From a virus (lineage: Duplodnaviria > Caudoviricetes), in IMG/VR virus record IMGVR_UViG_3300033121_001571: a stretch of DNA of 64,000 bases. One strand, given 5' to 3'. The notes under the pieces were generated by a model. That model did no database searches. It was not told where the DNA came from and saw only the letters and a program-made list of their open reading frames with translations. This document shows positions 14,051 through 46,182 of this stretch, in pieces. Position 1 is the stretch's first letter; the number at the start of each line of letters is the position of its first letter. The position numbers and the translations under genes are program-made.

Positions 14051-14380
14051 CTAATCTTCGTCCACTGCGTCCATGAAAGCATCGAAGTCTGGACCTTGAA
14101 CGCTGTACCAGCACGCGCCGTACACGAAGTCGAAGATCTCGAGACCCGTCTTCTTGCTCGTGTAAGAGACGCCCTTGACTGTCTCTCCAGCGCTCAAGTT
14201 GATCGTGACAGGGTTGTTCCTTCCGAACATCTTGGTCACTGGACGACCGTCTTCCCAGGTGTCGCGGGTGTACTGAGCTTCGACCTCGACGTCCTCTCCC
14301 AGCGTGCACTCGACGATCGCAGCACCAGAGTTCTTGAGATCTTCGAAGTGCTTCACGAACGCTAACTCTTTGTTCTTCAC
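14051..14380 (-). CDS. phage hypothetical protein, leaderless
   Basis: GTGCAC-17-TACGTT-6-GTG promoter at 14415..14378; high-GC codons. Confidence 0.8.
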   Translation of the reverse strand: MKNKELAFVKHFEDLKNSGAAIVECTLGEDVEVEAQYTRDTWEDGRPVTKMFGRNNPVTINLSAGETVKGVSYTSKKTGLEIFDFVYGACWYSVQGPDFDAFMDAVDED

Positions 14381-14560
14381 GATCTCAACGTACCACGTTG
14401 TTGCACGCCGTGCACTGTAGTTCTCTGTGCAGAGAGTGCATATTGTTTCTCGACGTAGTATGTGTTAAAAATGCTCAAAGACCGATCTCATAACACTATT
14501 GGTGACGGAGTGTGGGCAGCAAGATCTCATCAAATCTCACTAAATAAACTTAGTGAATGT

Positions 14561-14592
14561 TCAAAAAGGGATCTTTGAAAGATCCCTTTTTG
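14561..14592. terminator. Bidirectional terminator-like hairpin
   Basis: caaaaagggatcttt-g-aaagatccctttttg. Confidence 0.6.
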
Positions 14593-14632
14593 CGTTAGTG
14601 CATAATTTGTCTCAAGGTGATACAGTAACTCT

Positions 14633-15265
14633 ATGCCGATCATCAAGTCTCTCAGCGACAACGGTCCCCAAGTCGTGTTGTTCGTCGGGCGGGTCGTCCG
14701 GATCGAGACGGGCACCGAGACGCGGAACTGTTCGGACACTCTGGACTTCACCGACTTCCAGTCGGTGAACGTCACCTACGCTCTCGTCTACATCGACGAG
14801 ACGCTCGTTCCTCTCTCGAGCGCCGAGAGAGAGTACACCAAGTACGCTCGTCACGAACACGGTGACAAGTTCGTGCGGGTCGACTGCACGAACATGTTCG
14901 TCTGGCGTGGTTCTCCCAGCATGACGCCCGTCGTCGACGAAATGGAGTGTACGGTCTTCGCCTCTACGTGGAAGAAGGATCTCGAGACTCGAGACGCTCT
15001 GAAACTCGAGGCCGAAGTGAAGGCGCAGCAGCTCCAGGAAGAGCGGCGCCGACTCGCTATCGAGGAACACGCTCGAAAGCTCGCTAACGTTCCGGTCCTG
15101 GGCAAGCAGATGCGAGTCGCTCGCGGGCGCAAGGTCAAGGTCGGGACGGAGGGCACCGTAGCGTTCATCCGGGGTGACAGCGTCCTCCTGAAGGAGGACA
15201 CGGTCTGGCGTGACCGCAAGGCACAGGGCGTCTGGGTGCCCGCTTCGTACCTCGAAGCTCGCTAA
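14633..15265 (+). CDS. phage hypothetical protein with C-terminal SH3-like domain, leaderless
   Basis: GTGCAT-17-TACAGT-6-ATG from 14598; C-terminal RVARGRKVKVGTEGTVAFI. Confidence 0.85.
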   Translation: MPIIKSLSDNGPQVVLFVGRVVRIETGTETRNCSDTLDFTDFQSVNVTYALVYIDETLVPLSSAEREYTKYARHEHGDKFVRVDCTNMFVWRGSPSMTPVVDEMECTVFASTWKKDLETRDALKLEAEVKAQQLQEERRRLAIEEHARKLANVPVLGKQMRVARGRKVKVGTEGTVAFIRGDSVLLKEDTVWRDRKAQGVWVPASYLEAR

Positions 15266-15281
15266 GTCATTCACTGTTGTT

Positions 15282-15317
15282 GTTCAAGAGTTGGTGGTTC
15301 CCCACCAACTCTTGAAC
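15282..15317 (+). terminator. Terminator-like hairpin
   Basis: gttcaagagttggtgg-ttcc-ccaccaactcttgaac. Confidence 0.65.
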
Positions 15318-15421
15318 TCATTTTGACACTAGAGAACCCGTGTCAACGCTCTGGAACTCCTCGCAAGTTAACGTTTTTCTCAAACATAGTAGATTCAGTC
15401 AGAGAGGAGGACTAACGAGCT

Positions 15422-15592
15422 GTGAAGAGATGGGAACATCCCAATCCGAAGTGGGACTGCGTCTGGAACGCATGGTTCATGTTCCGCGCTTCTCAGACTC
15501 TTCGCGAGGCTTCTTACTGGCTCAGCGAGTTCCAGGCCAGGCGGCGTAGGGTCAAGGGAGTGAACATCGCTGAACAAGTAGTTAGGATCTAA
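15422..15592 (+). CDS. small Trp-rich hypothetical protein (not in ORF track)
   Basis: GTTAAC-17-TAGATT promoter at 15367, SD GAGGAGG, reads MKRWEHPNPKWDCVWNAWF... Confidence 0.55.
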   Translation: MKRWEHPNPKWDCVWNAWFMFRASQTLREASYWLSEFQARRRRVKGVNIAEQVVRI

Positions 15593-16024
15593 AACAGAGG
15601 AAACAGATCATGTCGCAACCCTTTTACCCCCTGCGAAACTGCAGAGGGAAGATCGACGACGCTGAGGGGGAAATCCGACGTGCCGTGTACCCGTTGGAGA
15701 TGTGGTTGGTCTACGACAAGGTCGAGCCCCCGTACTGGGAGATGGTGGAGATGTCGTCCACCCCCACCCTCACAGACGATCGTCGTGCAAGCGTGTACCT
15801 AACTCAGCGCGAGGGCGTCTGGCGAAGTGTGGCGTACGGGACGGGTCTTGTGGGTACCCACAAGACCTTACGGGAGGCCATGTTCTACGCCGAAGAAAAC
15901 GCGCGCGTTTTCTTCGACTGAAGAGTAGAAACAGGAGACATGGTTGAGGCGGCGTAGGGTCAAGGAGTGAACATCGCTGATCCGATAGTTAGAATCTAGA
16001 ACGGAGGAAACAGATCATGTCGCA
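15538..16024 (+). repeat. ~80-bp direct repeats (gene end + promoter + SD + start) flanking ORF 15610..15921
   Basis: aggcggcgtagggtcaagg(g)agtgaacatcgctga...gaggaaacagatcatgtcgca at ~15538-15617 and ~15946-16024. Confidence 0.85.
15610..15921 (+). CDS. phage hypothetical protein
   Basis: Own promoter (15560) and SD GAGG. Confidence 0.8.
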   Translation: MSQPFYPLRNCRGKIDDAEGEIRRAVYPLEMWLVYDKVEPPYWEMVEMSSTPTLTDDRRASVYLTQREGVWRSVAYGTGLVGTHKTLREAMFYAEENARVFFD

Positions 16025-16241
16025 CCGTGCTCGAGTCTACCACAACATCGAGAGTCTGGCTCGTATCACCCACGCTCGCCGGGCTCGTCGTCGGTGGAAG
16101 CTCCACGTGGAGAAGCACGGGAACGTCCCTCTGGTCGACAAGTGTTCGATCTGTCGCGAGCACGACGCGAAGAGCACTCCGAGGCGCTACCTGGAAGGCG
16201 AGGCGCGCATTCCCAAGCGCGTCCGCGATCTCACGGAGTGA
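16017..16241 (+). CDS. small basic hypothetical protein with CxxC
   Basis: Own promoter (15967), SD GGAGG; stop TGA lies in the next -35 box. Confidence 0.75.
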   Translation: MSHRARVYHNIESLARITHARRARRRWKLHVEKHGNVPLVDKCSICREHDAKSTPRRYLEGEARIPKRVRDLTE

Positions 16242-16272
16242 ATAGACGACCCAATTGGGATAGATTGGGTTC

Positions 16273-16632
16273 ATGAAGACCACCACCAAGAAGCGTCTCA
16301 CCAAGAAGCGTCTCGCCGAGTCCAGCATGGAAGAACTCGTGTGGGACCTGTGGAGTTCCTACTCGGAGTCGGACGTCGACGGCGTCTGTGGAGTTCTTCC
16401 CTGTTGGGGTCCCTACTCCGACGAGAACGGCGAAGATATCGATCAGGACAAGGCGCGTGAAACGTTGAAGGAGACGATCAGGAACAAGTCTCACCTCAGC
16501 GAAAGTGCACTCGACGATGTCCTGTTCTCGATCGAGGCGCTCCGGGAACGCACTTCCTACGACGAGCGATGGGTTGCGAAGAACGTGAAGAACTGGACGA
16601 TCATCCTTTTGGATGACCAGAAGTCCCAGTAA
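16273..16632 (+). CDS. phage hypothetical protein, leaderless
   Basis: GTGAAT-17-TAGATT-6-ATG from 16238. Confidence 0.8.
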   Translation: MKTTTKKRLTKKRLAESSMEELVWDLWSSYSESDVDGVCGVLPCWGPYSDENGEDIDQDKARETLKETIRNKSHLSESALDDVLFSIEALRERTSYDERWVAKNVKNWTIILLDDQKSQ

Positions 16633-16703
16633 AGTCCAAGTCCTAAACTCGACCTGAGTTAACATTCTCTCTGGTTGGGATATAGTTGTCTCAACCAGAG
16701 AAA

Positions 16704-18866: not shown

Positions 18867-19148
18867 TCAGTACAGAGGAAAGTCTTCGACCTTGTAGACC
18901 CTCAGGGGTTCGCAGAACCACATGCACTCGTTGAAGTGCTCGAGTGCATCACGCACTTCGTCCTCCTGCAGGAGCTCACCGTCGACCCCTCGCTTTCGAA
19001 GCACTCGAGCGTTGCGCTCCATCACGAGACGCTCTGCGTCGGAGAGCGACGGGAGCACACCGATGAACCTGACCTCACGATCCGAAGTGGGATCGAGATC
19101 TTCCGAAAAGACGATCGTCATTTCCGAGTTGTTGGAGGTGTTGTCCAT
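18867..19148 (-). CDS. hypothetical protein, leaderless
   Basis: GTGAAT-17-TAGAAC-6-ATG (19183..19146). Confidence 0.8.
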   Translation of the reverse strand: MDNTSNNSEMTIVFSEDLDPTSDREVRFIGVLPSLSDAERLVMERNARVLRKRGVDGELLQEDEVRDALEHFNECMWFCEPLRVYKVEDFPLY

Positions 19149-19179
19149 GAACTAGTTCTACCCTCAAGAGGGAAGAGAT

Positions 19180-19395
19180 TCACTCCGCCGCGAGCGCAAA
19201 CGTGTAACAACAGTGCCACCTGACTAACTCAGGATTGGGTGAAAACTTAAGTACGAGCAGGAAGCCATCACTCATGGCGCGCAAGTACATACCAGTGACA
19301 AAATCAAAGTTAATGACGTTATATGCTACGATATCACCCACTCGGGCGTCATCAGGATTAAAGGCTGGTATGTGCTTGCGCGAGCTTATCACCAT
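19180..19395 (-). CDS. xGD-family small protein (central satellite cluster)
   Basis: ARVGDIVAY. Confidence 0.65.
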   Translation of the reverse strand: MVISSRKHIPAFNPDDARVGDIVAYNVINFDFVTGMYLRAMSDGFLLVLKFSPNPELVRWHCCYTFALAAE

Positions 19396-20563: not shown

Positions 20564-20908
20564 TCACTCTGGCAAGAGACAACCGTTGTCAGACAACCAC
20601 TTCATATTCTTCTCGTACGTGGCAGCGTCTGCTTTGACGAAAGGAACACTCCCTGACCAGACCCACTCGTCTCCCATCCAGACGTATACGTCCATCACGT
20701 CTGTGAAAGCAGGTACGTTGCGCTTAGGAAGCACGCAGAACTCCCAAGCGTAGATGGGATTCTCCGACTTGTGCTTCTCACAGTGATCCACGAGATAAGC
20801 GTGGAAAGACTCGTACGCTCCGGGCCATTGCTTCCACATCTTCTCGATGTCGTCGAGACTGAGTCCTCTGTGGTTTAACATCTTTTTTCCTTGGGACTTG
20901 GTCTCCAT
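20564..20908 (-). CDS. hypothetical protein, leaderless
   Basis: GTGAAC-17-TAGATT-6-ATG (20943..20906). Confidence 0.8.
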   Translation of the reverse strand: METKSQGKKMLNHRGLSLDDIEKMWKQWPGAYESFHAYLVDHCEKHKSENPIYAWEFCVLPKRNVPAFTDVMDVYVWMGDEWVWSGSVPFVKADAATYEKNMKWLSDNGCLLPE

Positions 20909-21049
20909 GAACCCAATCTACCATTTCAAGGACGAAAGTTCACTCGTCCTCTTCGTCTTCTTTGCCGTAGTGAAACTCTGCGGCTTCGTCACCGTACATG
21001 CTGGCTAGCAGGGCAAATTAAGCGTTAAGGAAGGAGAGAAGAATCAAGC

Positions 21050-21273: not shown

Positions 21274-21356
21274 CCGTTTAGGAATAGACCAGGCCTTTGG
21301 CAACTGGTCCTTGTTGCATCACCACCTGACCAGAGTATACTCTGGTCAAGAGAACC

Positions 21357-21608
21357 TTACACCGAGGAGAAAACCTTCGCCAGGATCTCGTCGTGATCCT
21401 TCGTGGTCATCTTGAGCCACTTGTGGTACAACCCGCGGTGCTCGCGAGGGAAGTCGCTCAGCGAGAGCTGATCAGCAACGATTTCGCTCACCTCTTCGCT
21501 TCCGAAGCTCCCGTCGGAATCACCCGCATCGGAAGCGATTCCGCTCCAGACAGAGAGAAGAACTCGTTCGAGAACGTTGAACTCTTCCTTCGTCAGATTG
21601 ATTCCCAT
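21357..21608 (-). CDS. hypothetical protein, leaderless
   Basis: GTGTAT-17-TAGAAC-6-ATG. Confidence 0.8.
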   Translation of the reverse strand: MGINLTKEEFNVLERVLLSVWSGIASDAGDSDGSFGSEEVSEIVADQLSLSDFPREHRGLYHKWLKMTTKDHDEILAKVFSSV

Positions 21609-21684
21609 GAACTAGTTCTACCTCTTCTAGACCTGCGATACACTGCGAGTGCAGGGACCTTCGCGCGCTACGCGCGCGGGAGTT

Positions 21685-22002
21685 TCACTTCCACTCGCAA
21701 TCCCGGACCTTCTTGTCCACGGGACCCATGTTCATGGAGTGAGGCTCGCCACAGACGTACACCTTCTTGTGAAGAGGGACGTACGTCTTCTTCTTGTTGA
21801 CGCTCACGATGAGCTCGGGAAGCACGACGCTCGTCATCGGCGCAGCTTTCACTGCGGGAGGATCCTCGCGGTGATTCGTGGTCTTCTTGTTCTCCGAACG
21901 CAGAGCAGCGCTCTTCCTCTCCCAGCGAAGCTCGTCCTGAGCCTGCGACACTGCGGCGTACGAGAGAACCAGAGCGATGATGGAGAGTGCGGTGGTCTTC
22001 AT
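21685..22002 (-). CDS. exported/signal-peptide hypothetical protein, leaderless
   Basis: N-terminal signal peptide; GTGAAC-17-TAAAAC-6-ATG. Confidence 0.8.
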   Translation of the reverse strand: MKTTALSIIALVLSYAAVSQAQDELRWERKSAALRSENKKTTNHREDPPAVKAAPMTSVVLPELIVSVNKKKTYVPLHKKVYVCGEPHSMNMGPVDKKVRDCEWK

Positions 22003-22099
22003 GAACTAGTTTTACCCTTTAGGTGACGAAGGTTCACTCACTTTCTCGTCTTCTAGAACTAGAGTGTAACGTTTACGTAAACCAGAATAACATCTGTCC

Positions 22100-22312: not shown

Positions 22313-22380
22313 CTCTGCTCAACTGAGCAGTGCAAGTCGCTGCTCAACGTTGTATAGTCTCTATACACAGGAGGTACCAG

Positions 22381-22899
22381 ATGTCAGTTGCGAAGTCTCC
22401 AGAACGTCAAGCGGCGATCGCTCGCCTCAACCAGAGAATCACAGAAGTGAATGCGCTCGCGGAGCAGCGATACGCAGAGGCTCTTCTCGAGTACCAGAAG
22501 AAGCCAATCTTCAGCTGCGACGAGAAAATCGCTCACGTAGTGAACGTCGACGTGGTCATGGACTATCTGCGACGATCTCCTTACAAGTACGTGACGTACG
22601 TCTTGAAGTGCACCACGTCGCCACATATCTGGAAGACGGATATTTGGCTGGAACCTCAGCCCATCCACAAGATCAAGAGCATCTCTGATCACGACTCTGT
22701 CATCGAAGAGTCGGTGGAAAACGAGATCCAGTGCTTGGTGCTTCAGCTGGAAAAAGAGACGTTTCTCCCACGCTTCAACACGGTGAACGCCTACCTCAAA
22801 GGCGTGTTCGAAGTCTATATCCGACAGGTAGACTACGAAGATCTCCGACGGCGTAATGCCACGCTGATGGAAATCGTCTCGTATCTCGAGAAAAAGTGA
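22381..22899 (+). CDS. hypothetical protein
   Basis: GTGCAA-17-TATAGT promoter, SD AGGAGG, ATG at 22381. Confidence 0.8.
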   Translation: MSVAKSPERQAAIARLNQRITEVNALAEQRYAEALLEYQKKPIFSCDEKIAHVVNVDVVMDYLRRSPYKYVTYVLKCTTSPHIWKTDIWLEPQPIHKIKSISDHDSVIEESVENEIQCLVLQLEKETFLPRFNTVNAYLKGVFEVYIRQVDYEDLRRRNATLMEIVSYLEKK

Positions 22900-23620: not shown

Positions 23621-24013
23621 CTATTTCTTGTTGACGATCAGGTCGTACCTGGGTACCATCAGCCCCATGAGCTCCCGCTTCTTCTTCCGCGTGGCAGCTG
23701 CTTTCTTGCCAGCTTCTCGGCGACGACGAGTGATCATTGCTTTCTCCGCTGCCTGGAGACGCTTCAGCTGATCACCAGGGATGGCGCGGAACTCGGCGAT
23801 CTTGATCGAAGATTTCTTCGAAGAAACAGCCTTAGCGTACGACTTCATGACACGGTTCGTGATGTACTCGTTCGCCCAGTACCATACCGCTTCCATCACC
23901 GGGCCCTCGAACCAATCCTCGATCTTGATCGAGAATCCTCGACGACCAGTCTTCGGCGACCTCGGGCGGTGAACAGAGACTACGTAAACCCTGTTGGATA
24001 CTGTGTTTTCCAT
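23621..24013 (-). CDS. basic hypothetical protein, leaderless
   Basis: GTGAAC-17-TAGATC-6-ATG; KKAAATRKKK. Confidence 0.8.
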   Translation of the reverse strand: MENTVSNRVYVVSVHRPRSPKTGRRGFSIKIEDWFEGPVMEAVWYWANEYITNRVMKSYAKAVSSKKSSIKIAEFRAIPGDQLKRLQAAEKAMITRRRREAGKKAAATRKKKRELMGLMVPRYDLIVNKK

Positions 24014-24044
24014 GAACTAGATCTACCCTTTCAAGAGAGAAGGT

Positions 24045-24389
24045 TCACGCGAAGTCTTCGTCGCCGACACTTTCCTCGAACACGTACGGAACACCAGGGA
24101 AGTACACGATCGTACCCAAGCCCATTGCGTCTTGGCACATGGAAGACAGGGCTTCTGCGATCTCTTCTGCGATGTCGGAACGATCGAACTCTTCGTTCTC
24201 TGAGAAATTGGCTGCACGAACACTACCATTGAAGAGCGCACGGAGAATCTCCGCGCAGAACACTCCGACGGTGTTGTAGATCACGATTCCGAGACACTCT
24301 TTCCCGTACATCCCTCGCCCAGAGTACGAGCGCGTGGTTCCGATTTCAGGGTCGAGTTCACAGATAATCTGCATCGGGTGCTTCTTCAT
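24045..24389 (-). CDS. conserved phage protein (YSGRGMYG motif), leaderless
   Basis: RSYSGRGMYGKECLG...DAMGLGTIVYFP. Confidence 0.8.
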   Translation of the reverse strand: MKKHPMQIICELDPEIGTTRSYSGRGMYGKECLGIVIYNTVGVFCAEILRALFNGSVRAANFSENEEFDRSDIAEEIAEALSSMCQDAMGLGTIVYFPGVPYVFEESVGDEDFA

Positions 24390-24706
24390 GGTCTAGTTCT
24401 ACCTCCTGTTGAGCAAAGGTTCACTCATGTGGCGCAGTGATCAAAGTCTTGAGTGATCTAACGCACAGCGTCGTACGAATCCAGATCCAGCGCGAGCGTC
24501 CGACCGCGAAGATCCTTCACTTCCTTGGCAGAAATGCCATACTTGTTGGTGATATCCTTCCCGATCATATCGTTGAGCTCTTCGACACTCATCTTCGTCA
24601 CGGGAACGAGAATCGAACCCTTGTAGGGACCGATTCGGTACGAGAACAGATGCAGCTTCTCGGTCATGGTCTAGTTTTACCTCCTGTTGAGCAAAGGTTC
24701 ACTCAA
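24387..24706 (-). repeat. Near-identical ~41-bp promoter repeats flanking ORF 24458..24667
   Basis: catggtctagtt(c/t)tacctcctgttgagcaaaggttcactca at 24387 and 24665. Confidence 0.9.
24458..24667 (-). CDS. hypothetical protein, leaderless
   Basis: GTGAAC-17-TAAAAC-6-ATG. Confidence 0.8.
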   Translation of the reverse strand: MTEKLHLFSYRIGPYKGSILVPVTKMSVEELNDMIGKDITNKYGISAKEVKDLRGRTLALDLDSYDAVR

Positions 24707-24925: not shown

Positions 24926-25051
24926 TCACAACGCGAAGAAGATCTTTCCCACGGAATACGCCATCATCCCCCACAGAAAGCAGAGGACGAGATCGATGCT
25001 CGTGTCACGACCAGAAGGTTCCTTCAACCACTCGATGACCTTGCTCTTCAT
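24926..25051 (-). CDS. 41-aa membrane peptide, leaderless (not in track)
   Basis: GTGAAG-17-TATATT-6-ATG; MKSKVIEWLKE...LVLCFLWGMMAYSVGKIFFAL. Confidence 0.6.
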   Translation of the reverse strand: MKSKVIEWLKEPSGRDTSIDLVLCFLWGMMAYSVGKIFFAL

Positions 25052-25206
25052 GGATCCAATATATCCTCCCCGCTCGAGGGCTTCACGTTGACTCAAGAAT
25101 ATTCTTCAGCGGGAAGATTATGGTTACTGCACAGAAAAAACAAAACTCCCTAGAGTGAATTCTAGGGAGTTTGTCGACTTGACGCTGACTTACGCTTGGG
25201 GCTTCA

Positions 25207-25581
25207 CTAGCGCTGCGGCGAAAGAATCCGCGCAGTGCGACACCCGTTGTTGAGAGTGAACGCTCCCGCACACTCGATGGGAATGATCTCAATCGACTTG
25301 TCACTCTTCTCGACGCTGACATTGCAGCTGACGTAACCGTCGCCGTCGCTGTCAGAGTTTGCACAAGTCACTCTGTTGGGACTCACACCCATCTCTGCGG
25401 ACCATGCTCGTGCAGCAGTGAGGGCTTGAGCGTGACTCCTGCCGCTTGCGGCTCCGATAGCGTTGCACCCCGCGGCGAGAACGATCAACGCAACCGTGGC
25501 TCCTCCGAGGAGCATGATCAAAAAAACCATCAAGCCGAAGACACGCTCGATGAGTTTGTCCATGTGACTGTCTGTCATCAC
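25207..25581 (-). CDS. membrane-anchored phage protein (DSDGDGYVSC motif)
   Basis: N-terminal TM helix, CANSDSDGDGYVSC. Confidence 0.75.
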   Translation of the reverse strand: MMTDSHMDKLIERVFGLMVFLIMLLGGATVALIVLAAGCNAIGAASGRSHAQALTAARAWSAEMGVSPNRVTCANSDSDGDGYVSCNVSVEKSDKSIEIIPIECAGAFTLNNGCRTARILSPQR

Positions 25582-25591
25582 TTGATTCTAC

Positions 25592-25861: not shown

Positions 25862-25910
25862 CTCAGCCTCCGTAGAGAGACTCTACACCCCCAACGGTGA
25901 AGTTACACTC

Positions 25911-26860: not shown

Positions 26861-26920
26861 GAACCCAATCTACCACTCTACGCTCACAGTTTCACAGTTG
26901 CCTGTATAATAGGCTGTTGA

Positions 26921-31835: not shown

Positions 31836-31866
31836 ACCTTAGCTCTGGCTAGGGTACAACTAGACC

Positions 31867-32732: not shown

Positions 32733-32919
32733 CTGCGTCTTGCACTCTGTCAGAGCAAAGAGTCTTTAGCTTTGGAGAAAAGATTTCTCCCCCAGAGAGG
32801 TGTAACAAAGTCTCTACCGGGTTATAACTGGATCACGGAATGGCACTGGGGTGAGGAAATAAGCAATGCAGCTTATCTCGCTCGGTGCAAAGAAAATCTC
32901 AAAAAGGTAGGATTCAATC

Positions 32920-36033: not shown

Positions 36034-36249
36034 TCACTCTGTTTCGATGTCTTCTTCTGCCATGACGTGTACGAGTCTGTCATCGAAGATATCAGAAAAA
36101 GCATCCCGCAACGTTTCTACGACGTATTGCTTGAACTCAGGGTCGTTCACATCTCCGTGAAACTGGACTTCAGCACTCGAGCCAGGAATGCCGACCGAAG
36201 GATCACCATCACTCCAGATCATGAACTTCATTGTCTGCTCCTTGAGCAC
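36034..36249 (-). CDS. conserved phage protein (GDPSVGI motif)
   Basis: WSDGDPSVGIPG. Confidence 0.7.
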   Translation of the reverse strand: MLKEQTMKFMIWSDGDPSVGIPGSSAEVQFHGDVNDPEFKQYVVETLRDAFSDIFDDRLVHVMAEEDIETE

Positions 36250-36277
36250 ACTCTACTGCTTTCACAGTCTTTTTGCA

Positions 36278-36730
36278 CTAATCCTCTGCATCAGTTTCTT
36301 TAAGAACTGTGCAGGGACCAACGAGTTCGTCGACAACTGCTCGAGCTTCTTGCTCGGTGTCATACCGAGAAGCTTTCTGAAGCTCAACCTCGAAGCCATT
36401 GTAGTTAAACAACTTGTTGTCGTCAAATCTGATAACCCACTTGGGATTTCTCAAACGATTCACTTCTTGATTGCAAAGCTCGACTTCTTCGATTGGAACA
36501 TAAGATAGTCCACAGAAGCCAGAGGCAGAGTAGCCAAGCAGCTTATCGACTTGAATGAGGTCTTCGAGTGAGAACTCCCCAGCACGGTAAAGATCTACGA
36601 TACAGTTAAGATCGAATCCTTTTCGAGCTCGACCTTGTTCCATCATCCAACAGACGATCTTGTTCTCTTTGAACCGAATAACGTTACCGTCACGGTACAC
36701 AACTGGTTGTCGAGGGTGTTTATCACTCAT
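36278..36730 (-). CDS. conserved phage hypothetical protein
   Basis: HPRQP...IRFKENKIV...LGYSASGF. Confidence 0.8.
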   Translation of the reverse strand: MSDKHPRQPVVYRDGNVIRFKENKIVCWMMEQGRARKGFDLNCIVDLYRAGEFSLEDLIQVDKLLGYSASGFCGLSYVPIEEVELCNQEVNRLRNPKWVIRFDDNKLFNYNGFEVELQKASRYDTEQEARAVVDELVGPCTVLKETDAED

Positions 36731-36737: not shown

Positions 36738-36935
36738 TTAACAAGCGTTTTCTGCGCACGACGTGCAGCAAGAGGGAATCTCTTGTCGATTCGAGTTTGA
36801 CTCGAGCGTGTACTCCTCGATATCCGCAGCCGTGATCACCGCGTAGCAGATCTCACACCGTGGACGCTTGTCCACGTGCTTCATGTACGGAGACTTAGCG
36901 ACGATAGCTTGCCTCAGGAGTCGTTGCTTGTCCAT
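36738..36935 (-). CDS. Zn-finger small protein, leaderless
   Basis: CEIC...CTSC; GTGAAA-17-TAGATT-6-ATG. Confidence 0.75.
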   Translation of the reverse strand: MDKQRLLRQAIVAKSPYMKHVDKRPRCEICYAVITAADIEEYTLESNSNRQEIPSCCTSCAENAC

Positions 36936-37076
36936 AAGCAGAATCTACACCACCAGATACTAAGTTTCACTTCAAGAGTGGTGACTCGTGATTTTGGAGC
37001 CGTCCCAAGTGAGGGTGTATGGGTTGTTCTCGGGCGTTTCGCGCTGGTCGCTGCTCATAGACTAAAAGTACCACCT

Positions 37077-37463
37077 TTATCGCTTAGGTGCACTCCCAAA
37101 CTTCTTCAAGAATTCTTCGACAAATTCAGAAGAACAGTCAAGAGAGACAAAGTCATCACCTTGCATTCCTGCTTCTGAATAGCCAACAGACTTGACAAGT
37201 GCATCTGCAAAGCCCATCTTCTTGAGCTCGGCGTGAAGATCTTTCAACCAACCCTCGTCTGTGTAGATCAGATCGTGCTTGTCAACGTCCCAATCGCTGG
37301 TGTTGAAATACGCGCGGAGATCTCCAATCTTCTCCTTCGTCTTTTTATCGACGAAATATCTCATCTCGAGCGCATAGATCTCCACTGACTTCTTCTGACG
37401 CGTCCAGAAGCCGTTTCCAGTCGTTGTGGCTTTAAAAGCCACTTTCGTTTCCACGGAGGGCAT
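37077..37463 (-). CDS. conserved phage protein (IYTD...YSEAGMQG motif)
   Basis: GNGFWT, LIYTDEGW, YSEAGMQGDDFVSLD. Confidence 0.8.
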   Translation of the reverse strand: MPSVETKVAFKATTTGNGFWTRQKKSVEIYALEMRYFVDKKTKEKIGDLRAYFNTSDWDVDKHDLIYTDEGWLKDLHAELKKMGFADALVKSVGYSEAGMQGDDFVSLDCSSEFVEEFLKKFGSAPKR

Positions 37464-38478: not shown

Positions 38479-38946
38479 TCAGTCGTCGAACTCGGGCACT
38501 TCCTGGAAGGCAGAGTCACAGAACGTTCGAACGGTTCGAAGATCGTTCTTCTGACCGGGGAAGAGCTCCCGAGCGGTATCGAAGAACATCGTTCTGATCT
38601 GCCCCTCGCGGACCCCGCCCTCCTCGGAGCGATCGAAGTACCAGTCCGCCGCGGCGATCAGATCGTCCTCGCTCCCAGCGGCCTTGATCATCGCGTCGAG
38701 CGCACTCGACACGGGTTTGTTCGAGACCGCGAGCGGGAAGAGGACCATCAGCACTCTCTTCACTGTGTCCTTCTCGGGACTGTTCTCCGAGAGAGAAGAA
38801 CAGATCTGCTCCACCATCTCGAGCGCCGCCTTGCGCGCCTCGTCCTTGTCGCCGAAAGCAGCGACGAAGTGGGTGAGCGCTCGTCGAAGGACCGATCCCT
38901 GCTTCGCCGGAACACGCCGGCGATCGTTGTTGTTGTTCTGCTTCAT
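38479..38946 (-). CDS. hypothetical protein
   Basis: Promoter GTGTAC-17-TAGATT, SD GGAG; high-GC codons. Confidence 0.8.
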   Translation of the reverse strand: MKQNNNNDRRRVPAKQGSVLRRALTHFVAAFGDKDEARKAALEMVEQICSSLSENSPEKDTVKRVLMVLFPLAVSNKPVSSALDAMIKAAGSEDDLIAAADWYFDRSEEGGVREGQIRTMFFDTARELFPGQKNDLRTVRTFCDSAFQEVPEFDD

Positions 38947-39027
38947 GAGTTGATCTCCAAAGCGGCTATAGCCGCACTCCTTACTCTCTTAATCTAACCT
39001 TTGAGAAGCAACCGTACACTCTTGCTC

Positions 39028-39349: not shown

Positions 39350-40015
39350 TCAGCCGTTCGCCGCGGAATCGAGCTCCTCGTCGCTCTCCTCGACCTCCGC
39401 GTCCTCGAAGTCGAGCTCCTCGGCGTCGGCCTCGACCACGTCCTTGGAGGGATCGAAGAGCTCGACGTCGCTCTTGAAGAGGTAGACCTGGCGACCGATG
39501 GGCTGGCCCGTCGCGCCGTCGACGATGTCGACGTAGCACCGGATCCGGTTGACCGCGGTCACGACCGCGCGGTGGCCGATGTAGCGAGGATCCGCGCTCG
39601 AGCGGATCTTCACCTGCTGACCCGGAGCGAGCTCGATGTCCTTCGAAGCCACCGTCGCCGAGAGGCGCAGGGAGTGACCCAGGTGAGCGCTGAAGATCTC
39701 GAGCTCGGCGGGGGTGTACTTGGCCTTGATGTCCTTGAGGACCTCGGCCAGCGGCGCGGAGAGAGGCAGGAGGTTCGCGGCCGCCTTGGTGACCTTGGCG
39801 AGGTGCGGCACCTTCGCGCCGGGAGCACCGGACTGCTTCGCGGCCTTCTTCGCCTCGCGAGCAGCCTTCCGCTCGGCGCGCTCTCGCTCGAGCTGCTTCT
39901 TCTTCGCCTCGCGCTCCTCCGGCGTGAGCTTCACGCGGGGAGCGACGGGAGCGAGCTTGGTGATCTGGACCTGGGCGAGGGCGTTGTTGAGGATCTCGGT
40001 CGTGGGATTGCTCAT
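39350..40015 (-). CDS. Basic N-terminal helix + KOW/SH3-like domain + acidic tail; paralog of 32920..33549
   Basis: HLAKVTKA, LAPGQQVKI...YIGHRAVVTAVNRIRCYV; very high GC3. Confidence 0.85.
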   Translation of the reverse strand: MSNPTTEILNNALAQVQITKLAPVAPRVKLTPEEREAKKKQLERERAERKAAREAKKAAKQSGAPGAKVPHLAKVTKAAANLLPLSAPLAEVLKDIKAKYTPAELEIFSAHLGHSLRLSATVASKDIELAPGQQVKIRSSADPRYIGHRAVVTAVNRIRCYVDIVDGATGQPIGRQVYLFKSDVELFDPSKDVVEADAEELDFEDAEVEESDEELDSAANG

Positions 40016-40137: not shown

Positions 40138-40566
40138 TCAATTGAGGTGCCGAAAGTCGGAGGACGCCGCGGCGCTGATGGGCAGAGTGATAGTGTCACT
40201 CGAGGGCACCAGCTGGGGAACCGCAGGGTCAGACACGGTCAGCTTGACCGTGATCTTATCACGAGCGATCTCGGTGACCTCGGCCTGGCCATTGCCGATA
40301 CCAAACGTGACGCGCTCACCCACGCGCAGGCGGCGCGTAGAAGAAAGTACACTCTCGTGCACGTCGACCGCGCTAGAGAAGATGTGAAACGTACCCCCGG
40401 CGATCGCCGAGGTGATGATCTCGTCGAGACCAGCGCGGAGAGCAGCGTGGTACTTGTTACGCATCGCTTCCGTGTATGCGGTAGACCCGCTGTGCATCTC
40501 GTCTGCGGTTTTGCACAGCGAGTTGTAGTGGAAATTGAGCAGAGCGATGAAATGAATGCCGTTCAT
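40138..40566 (-). CDS. hypothetical protein with C-terminal SH3-like segment, leaderless
   Basis: LRVGERVTF; GTGAAC-17-TAGAGT-6-ATG. Confidence 0.75.
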   Translation of the reverse strand: MNGIHFIALLNFHYNSLCKTADEMHSGSTAYTEAMRNKYHAALRAGLDEIITSAIAGGTFHIFSSAVDVHESVLSSTRRLRVGERVTFGIGNGQAEVTEIARDKITVKLTVSDPAVPQLVPSSDTITLPISAAASSDFRHLN

Positions 40567-40935
40567 GTCTCCACTCTAACACTCAAAGGTGCAGAGTTCA
40601 CTGAGTCAAAACAGCAAGAATATTCGCAGTTGAATTTTGAGTGCAAAGTGTAAAGTACACGCGCAGAAGGTACAATGTGACATGCATAGCAAGACTGAAT
40701 TCATGGCAAAACACAATACAATCTTCCAGAGAACTCTGACCGGTTCTTCGAAAAGAACGGAGAAAACGACCAGATCTACATGACTCTTTCAGGCAAGTTT
40801 TCAAACACTTACAAAGACATCACGCCAGAACTTATCGCTTGGCTCAAACTCACAGCTAAGTTGTTCACTTGAAAGCTAAGTGAACAGCTCTGCGAAACAT
40901 AGTAAACTATTCTCTCTACCCACAGGAGACCAAAC

Positions 40936-41703
40936 ATGAGAGAGATGAGACTGGACACTCAAATCGCTGGGATCACCAGTGAGACAAAGCTCTCAGATCT
41001 GAGTGTTCCCAGCGAAATGCGAAAGCGCGTGAAGACAGGAATCGACTGGTGGGACACAGCACTCGGAGGTGGCGGTCACGTGCCCTCTACAGTGTGTATC
41101 CTCACTGGAACGCCAGGCTCTGGAAAGAGCACGTTGCAACGGCAGCTCGCATCCAGTTTGATTGGTCAGGGACACATTGTTCTCTATAACACTGGCGAAG
41201 AGAATCTCTATCAAGTCAAGATGGCAACGGAGCGGCTCGGCATTGCTGAAGACTTCTACGTGGGCCAGCACATCTTTGTCGATAATCTTCTCGCTCACGC
41301 AGAGAAACTTCGTTCTGCGAATACAGGAAAACGAATGTTTCTGTTTCAAGATTCACTGCAGACTTTGAATGACGGGTACTATAAAGACGGAGGAACGACG
41401 GGAAATACTCCCGTTCGGTGCATCGAGAAGGTGATCGATTGGTGCAAGAGCACCTATTCGATCGGAATCGTGATCAATCAGGTCACGAAGTCTGGAGAGT
41501 TTGCTGGAAAGCAAACAATCATTCACGCTGTCGATGCTCGAGTTCACCTGTACATCGACGAAGATCCTCGCTCACCCACGTACGGATCTCGCGTCTTTGA
41601 AGTCCCCAAGAACCGCTGGGGCTGCTCGGGTATCACGACCGTGCTCAACATGAAAGAATCTGGTTTGGACCACCAGTGTTCTTACGTCAAAGGCGCAGTC
41701 TAA
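40936..41703 (+). CDS. RadA/Sms-like RecA-family ATPase (ATPase core only)
   Basis: KTGIDWWD, Walker A GTPGSGKST, YNTGEE, DSLQT, HAVD, KNRWG (KNRFG-like); promoter at 40880. Confidence 0.9.
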   Translation: MREMRLDTQIAGITSETKLSDLSVPSEMRKRVKTGIDWWDTALGGGGHVPSTVCILTGTPGSGKSTLQRQLASSLIGQGHIVLYNTGEENLYQVKMATERLGIAEDFYVGQHIFVDNLLAHAEKLRSANTGKRMFLFQDSLQTLNDGYYKDGGTTGNTPVRCIEKVIDWCKSTYSIGIVINQVTKSGEFAGKQTIIHAVDARVHLYIDEDPRSPTYGSRVFEVPKNRWGCSGITTVLNMKESGLDHQCSYVKGAV

Positions 41704-42632: not shown

Positions 42633-42719
42633 AAGTTTTTTACGTGAGCGGGAGCGATCGCTCGAGGCTGGGGTGGCGGAGCTAGTGCAACACTCTTGTA
42701 ACTGTGTTACTGTTATAAA

Positions 42720-43010
42720 ATGTTTGGTTTTCGAACAAACCCTAAAGTGCTCATCGAACAAGTTGCACACAGCATGTACGATGAGTACGACCGTGCAGGT
42801 TTACATAAACGGGCTCTCGTCAAAGTAGACGGAAAGAAAAATCCAGAATCTAAGTTGTATGAGGTGTCTGTTTCTGTAAATGGGAAAAAGATCTGTCAGA
42901 ACTCTGACAGTGACTGGCGTACTGCATACAAGAAACTTCTTCAGACCCTGAAAGATACCAAGGGAGAGTGCAAGGCTCCCACGGATGGAGTAAAAAACGA
43001 TCATGGCTAA
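42720..43010 (+). CDS. hypothetical protein, leaderless, first gene of the AAA operon
   Basis: GTGCAA-17-TACTGT-6-ATG from 42685. Confidence 0.75.
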   Translation: MFGFRTNPKVLIEQVAHSMYDEYDRAGLHKRALVKVDGKKNPESKLYEVSVSVNGKKICQNSDSDWRTAYKKLLQTLKDTKGECKAPTDGVKNDHG

Positions 43011-44133
43011 AACGCAAATGCACGTTCGAACCGTGCTCTCGGTGGTGCCGCAGCTTCCTGCTGCGATCTCGGTCTTGTTCAGAGGAAATCACGGTATCGG
43101 AAAGAGCCAGGTCGTGGCTCAACTCCGGAACCTGATCAAGGAGAGTGACCCCAATCTTGGGGATTTTCCTCTCATCGACAGGCGTCTCTCTCAGTTGACT
43201 GAGGGTGACATCATCGGTCTTCCTTCGACTGACGGTGAGGTGACTCGATTCAACCCGCCCGACTGGTACAAGCAGGCGTGCAACAAGCCTGCGTGTCTGT
43301 TCCTCGACGAGCTCAACCGTGCAACTCCCGAGGTCATGCAGGCGGCATTTCAGATTGTTCTTGATCGGACCCTGAACGGTCAGAGCCTACACCCGCAGAC
43401 TCGAGTGTTCGCTGCGGTCAACGATTCTGGTGCGTACACCGTCAACGAGATCGACCCCGCTCTGCTGGATCGATTCTGGGTGGTGGATCTGAATCCCGAC
43501 GTGGACGACTGGCTCACTTGGGCTCGGAACGTTGGGATCCATGATCACATCACGGGATTCATCGCAGCGAATCCCAAGTTCTTGGATCCTCACAAGAACG
43601 TTGAGCCGGGTGCTGTGTCTCCGTCCCGTCGCTCGTACGAGCGTCTGGACATGAGCTTGAAATGTGCTGGGATCGAAGAGAAGCCCAATGACGATCGATT
43701 CTACTCGATCGCTGCAGGGTTCCTCGGTGTCGAAGCAGCGCAGGCTTTCTCTGCTCACGCCAAGAACAACGACCTCCGCGTTCTTCCCGAGGAGGTCGTC
43801 AACAGTTACAAGAAGGTGCAGAAGAAGGTGCAGAAGATGTCGATCGAGAGGCAGGTCGACCTCACTGCGAAGCTCTCAGACTACTTCGACGAGAAGCCCG
43901 AGAACCGAAAGTTCAGCGACAAGGTGCTTGGAAATCTCGATCTCTTCATGCAAGACATCACGCCTGAGACTCGCTTGACGTTCTTCACGAATGTCATCCG
44001 AAGCTGCGGCACCGACACCGCCGCGATGGCAGCCTTCAACGCAAAGGTGAACTATCAAGTACTTCAGTTATTCGGTGTGAACGCTGACGGTACTGGCGAA
44101 GTGAAGGTACCTGACTTCCTCGAAAAGAAGTAA
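43003..44133 (+). CDS. MoxR/dynein-related AAA+ ATPase
   Basis: Walker A GNHGIGKS, DIIGLP, Walker B LFLDELNRA, AAVN, DPALLDRF, SPSRRSYE. Confidence 0.93.
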   Translation: MAKTQMHVRTVLSVVPQLPAAISVLFRGNHGIGKSQVVAQLRNLIKESDPNLGDFPLIDRRLSQLTEGDIIGLPSTDGEVTRFNPPDWYKQACNKPACLFLDELNRATPEVMQAAFQIVLDRTLNGQSLHPQTRVFAAVNDSGAYTVNEIDPALLDRFWVVDLNPDVDDWLTWARNVGIHDHITGFIAANPKFLDPHKNVEPGAVSPSRRSYERLDMSLKCAGIEEKPNDDRFYSIAAGFLGVEAAQAFSAHAKNNDLRVLPEEVVNSYKKVQKKVQKMSIERQVDLTAKLSDYFDEKPENRKFSDKVLGNLDLFMQDITPETRLTFFTNVIRSCGTDTAAMAAFNAKVNYQVLQLFGVNADGTGEVKVPDFLEKK

Positions 44134-44137
44134 AGGC

Positions 44138-44605
44138 GTGTCAGCACCAAAGCTGATATCTAGCAGCACCATGCAACTAGCAAAACTAGTTGCATGGTGC
44201 TCTTGTCACAGTCTGAATGTTACCATCAGAGAAGGTAATTTTCAGGGCGAAAATATGGCTTTTTTTTGTGACGATTCTATCACTGTCACAAAACAGAAAA
44301 AAGCGCAAGAGACAGTGTGGCTTCTTCTCCACGAGATTGGACACTATCTTGTAACAAAAAAACATCCCAATAGGTACAAAAACGGATATCCTCACAGAGA
44401 AAAACCAAAGAAAAATTTGTTAAAGGCTGTACACTATGTCTCTATTCTTGAAGAAGAGATAGAGGCGTGGAATCTTGGAAGAGAACTGAGCAAAGACTTG
44501 AAATTCAAGTTCTCAGTCTCAGAATTTGAAAAGTACAAAACAAGTATGCTTAAATCTCACATCACGTGGGCGTACCTGAAACTTTCAAAAGATAGTAGTC
44601 TCTAA
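44138..44605 (+). CDS. HExxH zincin-like metallopeptidase
   Basis: LLHEIGH...EEEIEAW. Confidence 0.75.
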   Translation: MSAPKLISSSTMQLAKLVAWCSCHSLNVTIREGNFQGENMAFFCDDSITVTKQKKAQETVWLLLHEIGHYLVTKKHPNRYKNGYPHREKPKKNLLKAVHYVSILEEEIEAWNLGRELSKDLKFKFSVSEFEKYKTSMLKSHITWAYLKLSKDSSL

Positions 44606-45372
44606 TGAGAAGAAAAAACTTCCTTAAAAGAGGGTTATCAACAGTTCTTCCACACAACTTTTCAGATAGAATACTCAAACAATATCGACAGATACTTAAC
44701 GGCAATGAAGATCTTGCAAAGGCGCTAACGGCTGCTGACAACGCAACGCTACATTCTGTTTCAGGCGTTGTTATCTCTAACGAGAGAGATATAAGAACGG
44801 GAAAGTTACTGCCTTTTAGAGGGACGCGGAAAGAAAAGAGAAAGTTCCGCAAGGTATGGAGAAAGGGTTTCAAGAGTTTTCTAGACGTTGAAACTACGAC
44901 CCTCTACTTCAACGTGATTGATCGATTGAGGTTTTCAAATTCGAAAGCCAATTGTGTAGCGCTCACAAAAAGACACAAAAAGAAGTGTCTAAAACGTTTT
45001 AGCAGACAGGGTCACGCTATCTGGTTGCTTTCTTCTGCTAAGAACAAGGGCTCTTTCACAGACAAACTGCAAAACTATGCTGTTGTTAACAGCAAAAAAC
45101 TCGCTTCAAGACGTGGAAGAACTATGATTGCAAGACTTAAAAATGCAATCAAGATGAAACGTTTTCTCGCGAAGATCGTTGCTCTCAACGAAAATCAGGG
45201 AAGTGCAGTCATCAATATGCTCAAGAGCAAAGAAAGCTGGCTTCAATCAGGATATAGACTCCACAAAGACCTCAAAAGGTCAGATAGTAACCGTAAAGAG
45301 CGCAGTGAACAGTTTAAAAAGATTTTGTCACATAAGCCGTTCAAGCTTCTAGCTAAAGAAACTAAAGATTAA
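44605..45372 (+). CDS. highly basic hypothetical protein
   Basis: K/R-rich 255 aa, TAATG coupling. Confidence 0.7.
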   Translation: MRRKNFLKRGLSTVLPHNFSDRILKQYRQILNGNEDLAKALTAADNATLHSVSGVVISNERDIRTGKLLPFRGTRKEKRKFRKVWRKGFKSFLDVETTTLYFNVIDRLRFSNSKANCVALTKRHKKKCLKRFSRQGHAIWLLSSAKNKGSFTDKLQNYAVVNSKKLASRRGRTMIARLKNAIKMKRFLAKIVALNENQGSAVINMLKSKESWLQSGYRLHKDLKRSDSNRKERSEQFKKILSHKPFKLLAKETKD

Positions 45373-45518
45373 TTCTAGGACTACTCGTAAATAGTCCTTT
45401 GAAGCTAATTAACGTGTGAACAGGGAAGAGCGAGCAACCCCCTAAGTAACTGTCGTCATGTGTCTTCGCACAAGACGCACTACGTTATTCTAGAAATAGA
45501 ATAACATTAAGAAGAGAG

Positions 45519-45552
45519 AAAAAGCTGGAAGAAATTCCAGCTTTTTCTTTTT
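45519..45552 (+). terminator. Intrinsic terminator
   Basis: aaaagctggaa-gaaa-ttccagctttttctttt. Confidence 0.8.
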
Positions 45553-45582
45553 CAAGAAAACTTACGTGAGGATCATATCTAC

Positions 45583-45870
45583 TTGGATCATGTGATTTCT
45601 AACAAAGAAATTCCAAAGCGTGGAGACACAATCATTATTTCTTCAAATTGTGTAGAACACTGGTACAGTTATTTTATCTTGACAAAGAACCCAACTATGG
45701 TAACACCAGAACACGAAATAGAACACACGGTACACTTAGTACACGATATTCTCATACCTGTGATTGAGATAAAAGTGTTCAAGACTCGTGTTGACGTAGA
45801 CAGATATTCTGTCAAGATAGGAATGTCTTGTTTACACAAAATCAGTGATAACTTTTGGAGTAATTTTTGA
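45583..45870 (+). CDS. xGD-family small protein
   Basis: PKRGDTII, HKISDNFW. Confidence 0.7.
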   Translation: MDHVISNKEIPKRGDTIIISSNCVEHWYSYFILTKNPTMVTPEHEIEHTVHLVHDILIPVIEIKVFKTRVDVDRYSVKIGMSCLHKISDNFWSNF

Positions 45871-45906
45871 CGTGTAACGCTCTGTGCGCCGTGGTACAGT
45901 CGTGTC

Positions 45907-46182
45907 ATGGATTTAGCACCTGGCGCTGCGCCTTTGGTTGGTGATATACTGTTGCACTATGGAACAGTAGAAATTCGCGTAGTGACCAAGTCAACTTTTT
46001 TACACATCTCTAGTGAACACTTTGTTTTCAACTTGAAGTGCTTCTCTCTAGACGAAAATAGAGATCACTATCTCAGATTTATTTTCCATCCCGAGTTTAC
46101 CGATCGCCGACCGTCACGCTCAAACGCAATTTGGAGAGTTTATTTTAGTCATGGTGATGCTTTCCCATACAGTAAAACTTAA
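45907..46182 (+). CDS. xGD-family small protein, leaderless
   Basis: LVGDILL; promoter at 45872. Confidence 0.75.
   Translation: MDLAPGAAPLVGDILLHYGTVEIRVVTKSTFLHISSEHFVFNLKCFSLDENRDHYLRFIFHPEFTDRRPSRSNAIWRVYFSHGDAFPYSKT

Follow-up and report, generated by a model that had tools for sequence, protein, structure and literature searches.

The 64,000-nt stretch of IMG/VR record IMGVR_UViG_3300033121_001571 (Duplodnaviria; Caudoviricetes), hereafter called the window, is part of an uncultured giant phage genome and carries many copies of a two-box motif with a GTG-type upstream box. Based on its composition, spacing and position relative to open reading frames (ORFs), the motif is very probably a promoter class of the sigma-70 family restricted to this huge-phage lineage, with about half of its units predicted to be leaderless. 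About sixty small genes carry the 29-base promoter, roughly half of them in the leaderless register. Direct observations are the motif, its spacing, its placement ahead of ORFs and the fact that relatives share it.

The working pattern consists of the hexamer GTGHAN, 17 nt and the hexamer TANNNY. It has 72 matches in the window, compared to 7–22 for the other spacers between 12 and 22 nt. In the region from 14 to 46 kb, 51–52 sites were found, while 300 first-order Markov null sequences gave 2.8 ± 1.6 sites with a maximum of 8. A two-box weight matrix yielded 54 sites at spacer 17 with a score of at least 14, and 1–3 at other spacers within 14–20; overall, weight-matrix sites number 54–58 at spacer 17 and 1–7 at any other spacer. 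A preliminary description of this DNA had reported about 40 copies with a nearly invariant 17-bp spacer, which is slightly low. Its literal register, GTGHA-N17-TANNNY, was rejected as a search pattern, with 10 matches against 10.1 expected by chance.

The consensus of the sites is aGTG(A>C,T)A(C/A)-17-(G/A)n(G)(G)TA(G)A(n)T, in which the TA and the final T/C of the -10 box are imposed by the search pattern. At the non-imposed positions of the -10 box, A was found at position 4 in 34 of the 52 sites and T was preferred over C at position 6 in 40. G occurs at positions -14 and -13 in 35/52 and 32/52 sites, and the base at -1 is C or T in 41/52. No conserved region resembling an UP element was observed further upstream of the GTG box. 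Two hexamers 17 ± 1 bp apart and a TAnnnT-type -10 box are as expected for sigma-70-family promoters, whereas the -35 box is not TTGACA-like: aGTGaAc has TG in common with it, plus an A in the GTGAAC form. Sites of the TTGACA/TATAAT type show no enrichment within the core (6 compared to 8.4 ± 3.2). Promoters of extracytoplasmic function (ECF) sigma factors have a GAAC-type -35 box and a CGT-type (CGTC or CGTA) -10 box; the TAnnnT of the present sites, preceded by a G, does not agree with this.

The spacers show 31% mutual identity, which is near chance, and 47 of the 52 are unrelated to one another; duplicate promoter copies were found at 15560/15967 and 24424/24702. The unrelated spacers indicate that the copies are maintained by function and not by recent duplication, and an origin of the motif as a repeat was rejected on the same grounds. 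None of the 52 sites lies within a called gene. A called gene on the same strand starts within 150 nt of 40/52 sites, and some of the remaining sites, for example that of alkB, precede ORFs which the crude gene caller missed.

The distance to the start codon is the second regular feature. Counted from the -10 hexamer, an ATG follows after exactly 6 nt at 26 sites of the 14–46 kb region and at 27 of the whole window, slightly above the approximately 24 counted before. The next commonest offset, +21, was found at 7 sites, all with an AGGA or GGAGG box, and each remaining offset at no more than 2 sites. ORFs of 55–210 codons are opened by 24 of the 27 ATGs at +6, while 26% of all ATGs of the region reach at least 55 codons. 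Together with a single GTG (14380), the units with this geometry, referred to below as leaderless units, have 27 ATG and 1 GTG start codons. In most of them, an in-frame stop codon precedes the start by 6 or 12 nt, so that no earlier start of the ORF is possible; this stop is often formed by the TAG within the -10 box. The pyrimidine at -1 followed by the purine A of the ATG, the 7th nucleotide after the -10 box, matches the usual preference for transcription starts. The first 36 nt of the leaderless ORFs are rich in A and C and poor in G, with a folding energy of -3.7 kcal/mol, whereas windows from the interior of these genes reach -7.4 kcal/mol (p 1e-7). A start codon at the predicted +1 without a 5' untranslated region (UTR), AUG as the start and a weakly folded 5' end are all features of leaderless messages.

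In the proposed mechanism, bacterial core RNA polymerase with an RpoD-type sigma factor would open the -10 box of promoters composed of aGTG(A/C/T)A(C/A) at -35, a rigid 17-bp spacer and TAnnn(T/C) at -10, usually with G at -14/-13. Transcription would initiate 7 nt downstream of this box, at a purine that follows a pyrimidine. For roughly every second unit this purine would be the A of the ATG, resulting in a transcript without a 5' UTR, and the ribosome would load directly at the 5'-terminal AUG. A single 35-bp module would then provide both transcription and translation initiation for one small gene. The other units would use the same promoter, followed by a leader of 12–45 nt, usually with an AGGA or GGAG box. 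Where transcription starts, that translation is leaderless and when the genes are expressed, including the designation of the GTG class as early, is what we infer from the sequence.

Related phages provide additional means to examine the motif. The IMG/VR contigs G1 and G2 were retrieved with the ATPase of the window, to which their own ATPases are 49% and 45% identical, and both were analysed at full length. G1 (L023–L032) is 184 kb in length; G2 (L005–L022) is 340 kb in length, has a GC content of 59% and is 99% complete. In G2, 81 sites of GTGHAN-18-TANNNY were found, other spacers giving 12–28, and the 18-bp sites are followed by an ATG at +6 in 31 cases and at +7 in 11. Between 129 and 145 kb, G2 features an array of genes of about 300 bp, each behind its own GTGAAa-18-ggTAGAcT-aggacc-ATG unit. 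Weak folding of the leaderless 5' ends was observed here as well (-4.4 compared to -9.45 kcal/mol internally, p 6e-12). The 18-bp spacer is also present in L034, L035, L038, L039, L046 and L047, which were found via a conserved neighbour of a sigma factor gene. The spacer is near-invariant in each phage, with 17 bp in the window phage and 18 bp in the relatives. An exact-pattern scan of viral contigs for more closely related phages that share the 17-bp spacer returned one 6-kb contig, without enrichment.

Orthologous genes retain the promoter class, and their mode of translation varies. The ATPase gene is in the leaderless register in the window and led by a Shine–Dalgarno (SD) box in G1 and G2, where the leader measures about 24 and 33 nt, respectively, and the GTG-class promoter is kept. 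The L039 orthologue of the gene starting at 42720 retains GTGCAA-17-TATAGT, and its ATG lies 8 nt past the -10 box. Recurring N-termini were observed among the leaderless ORFs of the 14–46 kb region (MDNT.., MENTV.., MKTT.. and METK..) and of G2 (METN.. and MDT..), which suggests either that an A/C-rich sequence is conserved where transcription and translation begin or that the cassette 5' ends have a common ancestry.

Some of the relatives occur in bins labelled Bdellovibrionota, Bdellovibrionales and Paceibacterota. In a metagenome-assembled genome (MAG) of 4.2 Mb, the pattern occurs 195 times genome-wide compared to 189 for the control, and its 89-kb phage contig alone contains at least 32 of the matches; a second MAG has at least 18 on its 57-kb phage contig. 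No excess of the motif was found outside the phage contig in these two MAGs, binning being no proof of host. This concentration on phage contigs indicates that the motif is phage-specific, at least relative to those bacterial genomes. Since the remainder of each bin is without the motif, the phage contigs of L046 and L047 are probably mis-binned. In L047 (G006 contig C9) and L046 (G005 contig C1), the -35 box is lengthened to GTGCAAAG(T/C)C or GTGAAA(C/G)TC, and the recognised -35 element may thus span some 10 nt.

A second, promoter-like class was found before starts in G2, where 20 of the 50 occurrences of TANTTA, mainly TA(C/G)TTA, lie 4–6 nt before an ORF of at least 60 codons and have no -35 box. 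This peak is also present in G1, where offset 5 accounts for 16 occurrences; no TANTTA-type class was found in the window. One G2 gene of this class encodes an endolysin; an example of the class in G2 is L014:17673-18839:-. As this -35-less class precedes lysis or late-type genes, leaderless starts appear to span more than one temporal class.

The identity of the factor that reads the GTG box is the least certain step of the model. One RpoD-like sigma factor each is encoded in G1, G2 and four further relatives, and no beta-like or T7-like RNA polymerase was detected in the relatives, among them the 99%-complete G2. The sigma factors of G1 and G2 contain regions 2 and 3, and of region 4 the first 18 of 50 Pfam positions, so that they end short of the -35-reading helix (4.2). 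A conserved helical protein of about 100 amino acids (aa) is encoded after the sigma factor gene in the relatives. From these gene contents and the phage specificity of the motif, we consider it about an even matter, with a slight lean in favour, that the phage's own truncated RpoD-like sigma factor reads the GTG box, where it may act together with the conserved small partner protein.

Several observations weigh against this assignment. The G2 sigma operon is itself located downstream of a GTG-class promoter, and a sigma factor without the -35 helix fits the -35-less TA(C/G)TTA class even better. Comparison of the partner protein with sigma region 4 yielded no Pfam match at E ≤ 1 and no PDB-sequence profile match, its AlphaFold model (pLDDT 73) gave no sigma-4 match with Foldseek, and the best VIA-align hits (Z 4.8) were to unrelated folds. 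The distant group L041–L044 also encodes the partner, and no GTG enrichment was found in the 20 kb examined.

The host primary sigma factor is the second candidate for the reader of the GTG box, and we give it somewhat less than even confidence. As a full alternative, the GTG class would be early and read by a host primary sigma factor with a GTGnAn-like -35 preference, while the truncated phage sigma factor would serve the TA[C/G]TTA class; we regard this as possible, but do not favour it. The absence of a canonical promoter near the G2 sigma operon is in line with it, as are the TG of TTGACA retained in GTGnAn and the position of GTG promoters before arrays of small takeover-type genes, similar to T4 early promoters (PMC2988021). 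The missing motif excess beyond the phage contigs of the two MAGs speaks against it, with the reservation on binning given above, and a rigid spacer that is shifted by 1 bp between related phages is more easily tied to a phage factor. No studied primary sigma factor is known to prefer GTGnAn.

If the phage sigma factor is the reader, a two-polypeptide factor can be considered, in which an RpoD-like body cut before helix 4.2 and a detached DNA-reading partner would read the private GTGnAn box, their geometry fixing the spacer of 17 or 18 bp. Together with leaderless starts, this would result in a 35-bp module able to express any captured ORF without an SD box and invisible to the host sigma factor. 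We put this forward as a tentative idea and think it doubtful in its full form. Phage-encoded or two-part sigma factors are known from SPO1 (gp28 and gp33/34) and from Bacillus subtilis (SigO-RsoA). The candidate factor would resemble them as a phage-encoded member of the sigma-70 family with its own promoter specificity, possibly composed of two polypeptides. It differs in that the partner has no detectable similarity to sigma region 4 and that the link of the sigma factor, or of its partner, to the GTG box is putative. If a split sigma factor does read the box, the 1-bp spacer shift would be a natural experiment on sigma domains 2 and 4 and promoter geometry.

In the preliminary description, the promoters were interpreted as an early programme that resists or exploits the shutdown of canonical translation. 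The promoter, the unusual -35 box and the leaderless geometry hold up on the basis of statistics, ORF structure, 5'-end composition and relatives; the anti-shutdown programme finds no support. A dedicated leaderless early programme, with phage messages escaping or exploiting a shutdown of SD-dependent translation, has a precedent in the Thermus phage phiYS40, whose middle and late transcripts are mostly leaderless and which is reported to shift the balance of initiation factors IF2 and IF3 (PMC3594737). We nevertheless consider it unlikely for the window phage, since the GTG class also drives SD-led genes (in 10/16 leadered core genes, an SD core lies no more than 20 nt from the start; chance 13%), the ATPase orthologues alternate between leaderless and SD-led, the second leaderless class precedes an endolysin gene in G2, and a search of G1 and G2 for an IF3 homologue gave no match. 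For the same reasons, leaderless starts look like a general expression habit of the lineage, not a special early device. The simpler reading would be that the host translates leaderless messages well, which is the case for Deinococcus-Thermus and Actinobacteria (PMC3160421, PMC12340547), and that the phage exploits this for very compact single-gene modules, whose layout is comparable to that of the promoter-hairpin (PeSL) cassettes of T4-type phages (PMC2839356, PMC4122927).

A further possibility is that the ATGs are not 5'-terminal, but are reached on longer read-through transcripts and started via a G-rich box just upstream of TAnnnT. A GAGG or AGGAGG is indeed present 12–13 nt before the ATG in 7/23 leaderless units, overlapping the extended -10 box, so that read-through transcripts could also be translated, which weighs against a strictly leaderless mode in these units. 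In addition, many units directly follow the preceding stop codon without a strong terminator. As a general explanation we judge this very unlikely: a gap of 12–13 nt is long for an SD box, 16/23 units have no such box, and the GTG box with its 17-bp spacer, the fixed 6-nt distance and the pyrimidine at -1 would be left unexplained.

The notion that the motif is a recombination joint or dispersed cassette repeat instead of a working promoter, which could draw on the single-gene cassettes, the few duplicate copies and the enrichment of terminator-like hairpins (37 compared to 20.3 ± 4.5 expected) reminiscent of the PeSL cassettes of T4-type phages (PMC2839356, PMC4122927), is highly improbable, as the two hexamers and their spacing alone are conserved over spacers of chance identity, with strand and start-codon distance fixed. 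As PeSL elements are promoters themselves, a cassette origin would supplement the promoter reading and not replace it. PeSL cassettes are defined by an early promoter joined to a stem-loop on either side of a single accessory gene; here, paired hairpins surround the gene 27032..27448, and many other units have no hairpin.

Leaderless promoters of a similar architecture are known from Deinococcus-Thermus and Actinobacteria, where a TANNNT -10 box adjoins the ORF (Zheng et al. 2011, PMC3160421; PMC12340547). Common features are a TAnnnT 6–7 nt before the start that leaves no room for an SD box, the dominance of AUG and the coexistence with SD-led genes. The units described here differ in belonging to a phage, in the conserved GTGnAn at -35, in the near-invariant spacer and in the presence of a copy for nearly every small gene. 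The leaderless classes of phiYS40 are middle and late and have no -35 box, whereas the leaderless class of the window has a strong box at the -35 position, and its relatives also have the -35-less class TA[C/G]TTA of their own. According to Sevostyanova et al. (2007; cited in PMC12340547, summarised in PMC3594737), a large share of phiYS40 transcripts is leaderless and produced with the host RNA polymerase core. Both are large phages, the leaderless units of the window being predicted from sequence. In T4, many strong promoters also stand each before a small accessory gene in variable regions, and units of promoter plus hairpin delimit single-gene cassettes (PMC2988021, PMC2839356, PMC4122927). 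T4 middle promoters carry a MotA box centred at -30, which replaces the -35 box, and keep the sigma-70 -10 box (PMC2988021); a phage-specific upstream box in place of the host -35 box next to a sigma-70-type -10 box is common to both systems. However, the early -35 box of T4 is host-like, its MotA box has a shorter gap and its messages are SD-led, while the GTGnAn box is found at the canonical -35 distance (17 bp) and not at -30.

Taken together, sigma-70-type promoters and leaderless mRNAs are already known kinds, and no new type of system is described here; new are the non-canonical GTG -35 box, the rigid spacer whose length is not the same in sister phages and the high share, about one half, of units predicted to be leaderless. 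For this clade of huge phages, all of them uncultured, the motif provides a simple expression grammar, and it extends the heavy phage use of leaderless mRNAs beyond Thermus phages. It fixes the true starts of dozens of small genes, exposes short genes missed by gene callers, marks transcription units and constitutes a promoter set for probing the odd truncated phage sigma factor.

The leaderless units are as follows, with an ATG 6 nt past the -10 box unless stated otherwise. GTGCAC-17-TACGTT at 14378..14415 (-) has the GTG start, at the same distance, and precedes ORF 14051..14380 (109 aa). GTGCAT-17-TACAGT at 14598..14635 (+) precedes ORF 14633..15265 (210 aa) and GTGAAT-17-TAGATT at 16238..16275 (+) ORF 16273..16632 (119 aa). 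On the minus strand, they are followed by GTGAAT-17-TAGAAC at 19146..19183 (-) with ORF 18867..19148 (93 aa), GTGAAC-17-TAGATT at 20906..20943 (-) with ORF 20564..20908 (114 aa), GTGTAT-17-TAGAAC at 21606..21643 (-) with ORF 21357..21608 (83 aa), GTGAAC-17-TAAAAC at 22000..22037 (-) with ORF 21685..22002 (105 aa) and GTGAAC-17-TAGATC at 24011..24048 (-) with ORF 23621..24013 (130 aa). GTGAAC-17-TAGAAC at 24387..24424 (-), ORF 24045..24389 (114 aa), has a spacer identical to that of the copy at 24702, GTGAAC-17-TAAAAC at 24665..24702 (-), ORF 24458..24667 (69 aa). GTGCAA-17-TAGAAT at 25576..25613 (-) precedes ORF 25207..25578 (123 aa).

The preliminary description had used the motif to add two ORFs and to correct three starts. 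Both ORFs do sit behind such promoters: the short ORF 24926..25051 (41 aa) behind GTGAAG-17-TATATT at 25049..25086 (-), and ORF 26693..26860 (55 aa) behind GTGAAA-17-TAGATT at 26858..26895 (-). The start at 27032 agrees with the promoter and ATG geometry of GTGTAA-17-TATGAT at 26997..27034 (+), ORF 27032..27448 (138 aa). For the start of alkB at 28134, behind GTGAAC-17-TACATT at 28132..28169 (-), the Pfam domain 2OG-FeII_Oxy_2 covers residues 15–201 of the 205-aa product, an AlkB-like 2OG-Fe(II) oxygenase (27517..28134), which is consistent with the correction. The start at 29846, behind GTGCAA-17-TATGAT at 29844..29881 (-), ORF 29601..29846 (81 aa), is likewise in line with its homologues in L039 and G2, which align from residue 1–2, the L039 homologue beginning at the aligned Met.

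Further downstream, GTGAAC-17-TAAAGT at 30859..30896 (-) precedes ORF 30661..30861 (66 aa). GTGCAA-17-TAAGAT at 31105..31142 (-), ORF 30880..31107 (75 aa), stands back to back with the promoter at 31182, GTGAAT-17-TAAGTT at 31182..31219 (+), ORF 31217..31513 (98 aa). GTGAAC-17-TACAAC at 31832..31869 (+) precedes ORF 31867..32058 (63 aa), and GTGCAA-17-TAGGAT at 32885..32922 (+) ORF 32920..33549 (209 aa), which encodes a KOW/SH3-like protein (P0002) and has a paralogue at 39350..40015 (P0001). ORF 36738..36935 (65 aa) follows GTGAAA-17-TAGATT at 36933..36970 (-). GTGCAC-17-TACTTT at 37056..37093 (-) faces only the 28-codon ORF 36972..37058, whose coding is doubtful. GTGAAC-17-TAGAGT at 40564..40601 (-) precedes ORF 40138..40566 (142 aa) and GTGCAA-17-TACTGT at 42685..42722 (+) ORF 42720..43010 (96 aa). 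The AAA_5 ATPase (43003..44133, 376 aa) is preceded by GTGCAA-17-TAAAAA at 42968..43005 (+), which has a weak -10 box and was found with the weight matrix only. The last unit of the region is GTGTAA-17-TACAGT at 45872..45909 (+), ORF 45907..46182 (91 aa). Outside 14378–45909, GTGCAA-17-TAAAAT at 7095..7132 (-) precedes ORF 6813..7097 (94 aa), the first of a small-gene operon.

Leaders of about 12–45 nt with AGGA/GGAG-type boxes were observed in nine units. GTGAAC-17-TAGGAT at 15560..15612 (+) has a leader of about 14 nt with a AGGAAACA box before ATG 15610 (103 aa) and is a near-duplicate of GTGAAC-17-TAGAAT at 15967..16019 (+), which has a short leader with an SD box before ATG 16017 (74 aa). 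Short leaders were also found for GTGCAA-17-TATAGT at 22330..22383 (+) with AGGAGG and ATG 22381 (172 aa), GTGTAA-17-TAGAGT at 25859..25908 (-) with GGAGG and ATG 25861 (89 aa), GTGAAC-17-TAGTAT at 31510..31565 (+) with AGGAAGGA and ATG 31563 (90 aa), GTGAAC-17-TAGACT at 32123..32175 (+) with AAGAGG and ATG 32173 (60 aa), and GTGCAA-17-TAGAGT at 36229..36278 (-) with AGGAG and ATG 36231 (65 aa). GTGTAC-17-TAGATT at 38944..39019 (-) has a leader of about 38 nt with GGAG before ATG 38946 (155 aa), and GTGAAC-17-TAAACT at 40880..40938 (+) one of about 20 nt with AGGAG before ATG 40936, which opens a 255-aa KaiC/RecA-like ATPase. Among promoter-less core genes, 7/13 carry an SD core at this distance (up to 20 nt from the start), the chance level again being 13%.

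Two variant copies begin with GTTAAC. GTTAAC-17-TAGATT at 15367..15395 (+) is followed by AGGAGG and GTG 15422, and GTTAAC-17-TATAGT at 16658..16686 (+) precedes a 5' region of about 100 nt. Other copies are without an ORF. GTGAAC-17-TAGGGT at 28572..28600 (-) faces the non-coding stretch 28208..28572, GTGTAA-17-TATACT is located at 21334..21362 (-), and more good copies were observed at 26433–26461 and 33609–33637; these four may drive small RNAs. In the AT-rich right flank, a strong copy, GTGCAA-17-TACAAT at 56744..56772 (+), heads a small-gene operon.

ORFs of about 100 codons fill nearly the whole window, with 13 ORFs of at least 200 aa. A megablast search of a phage collection with the window gave no match, and the best protein match to a cultured phage has 27% identity (the ATPase compared to AR9/PBS1). 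A tblastn search with the small sigma partner of the relatives gave no match among cultured phages. The GC content is mosaic, with 50–60% in the core (13800–44200; GC3 up to 0.9) and 35–40% in the flanks (1–13800 and 44200–64000). Both the GC-rich core and the AT-rich flanks carry the GTG promoter class and the small KOW/SH3-like protein family. The flanking operons, 46000–64000 (+) and 285–13500 (-), consist of genes of about 100 codons, mainly with 4-nt or 1-nt stop/start overlaps, and an SD core up to 20 nt from the start is present in 11/85 of them (chance 6–7%). The scarcity of SD boxes together with the overlaps suggests translation by coupling or re-initiation in these long operons.

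The hairpins that bracket 27032..27448, a lone plus-strand gene within a minus-strand run, are two near-identical two-way terminators of 12–14 bp at 26928–26957 and 27468–27499. Further strong two-way hairpins are located at 15282–15317, 23568–23599, 32702–32728 and 33567–33600. ARAGORN predicted a 78-nt tRNA-Arg(TCT) at 29061–29138 (-), which is below the gathering score of the Rfam tRNA model; at the gathering score, Rfam yielded a single tRNA in the whole window, a tRNA-Lys at 38343–38415.

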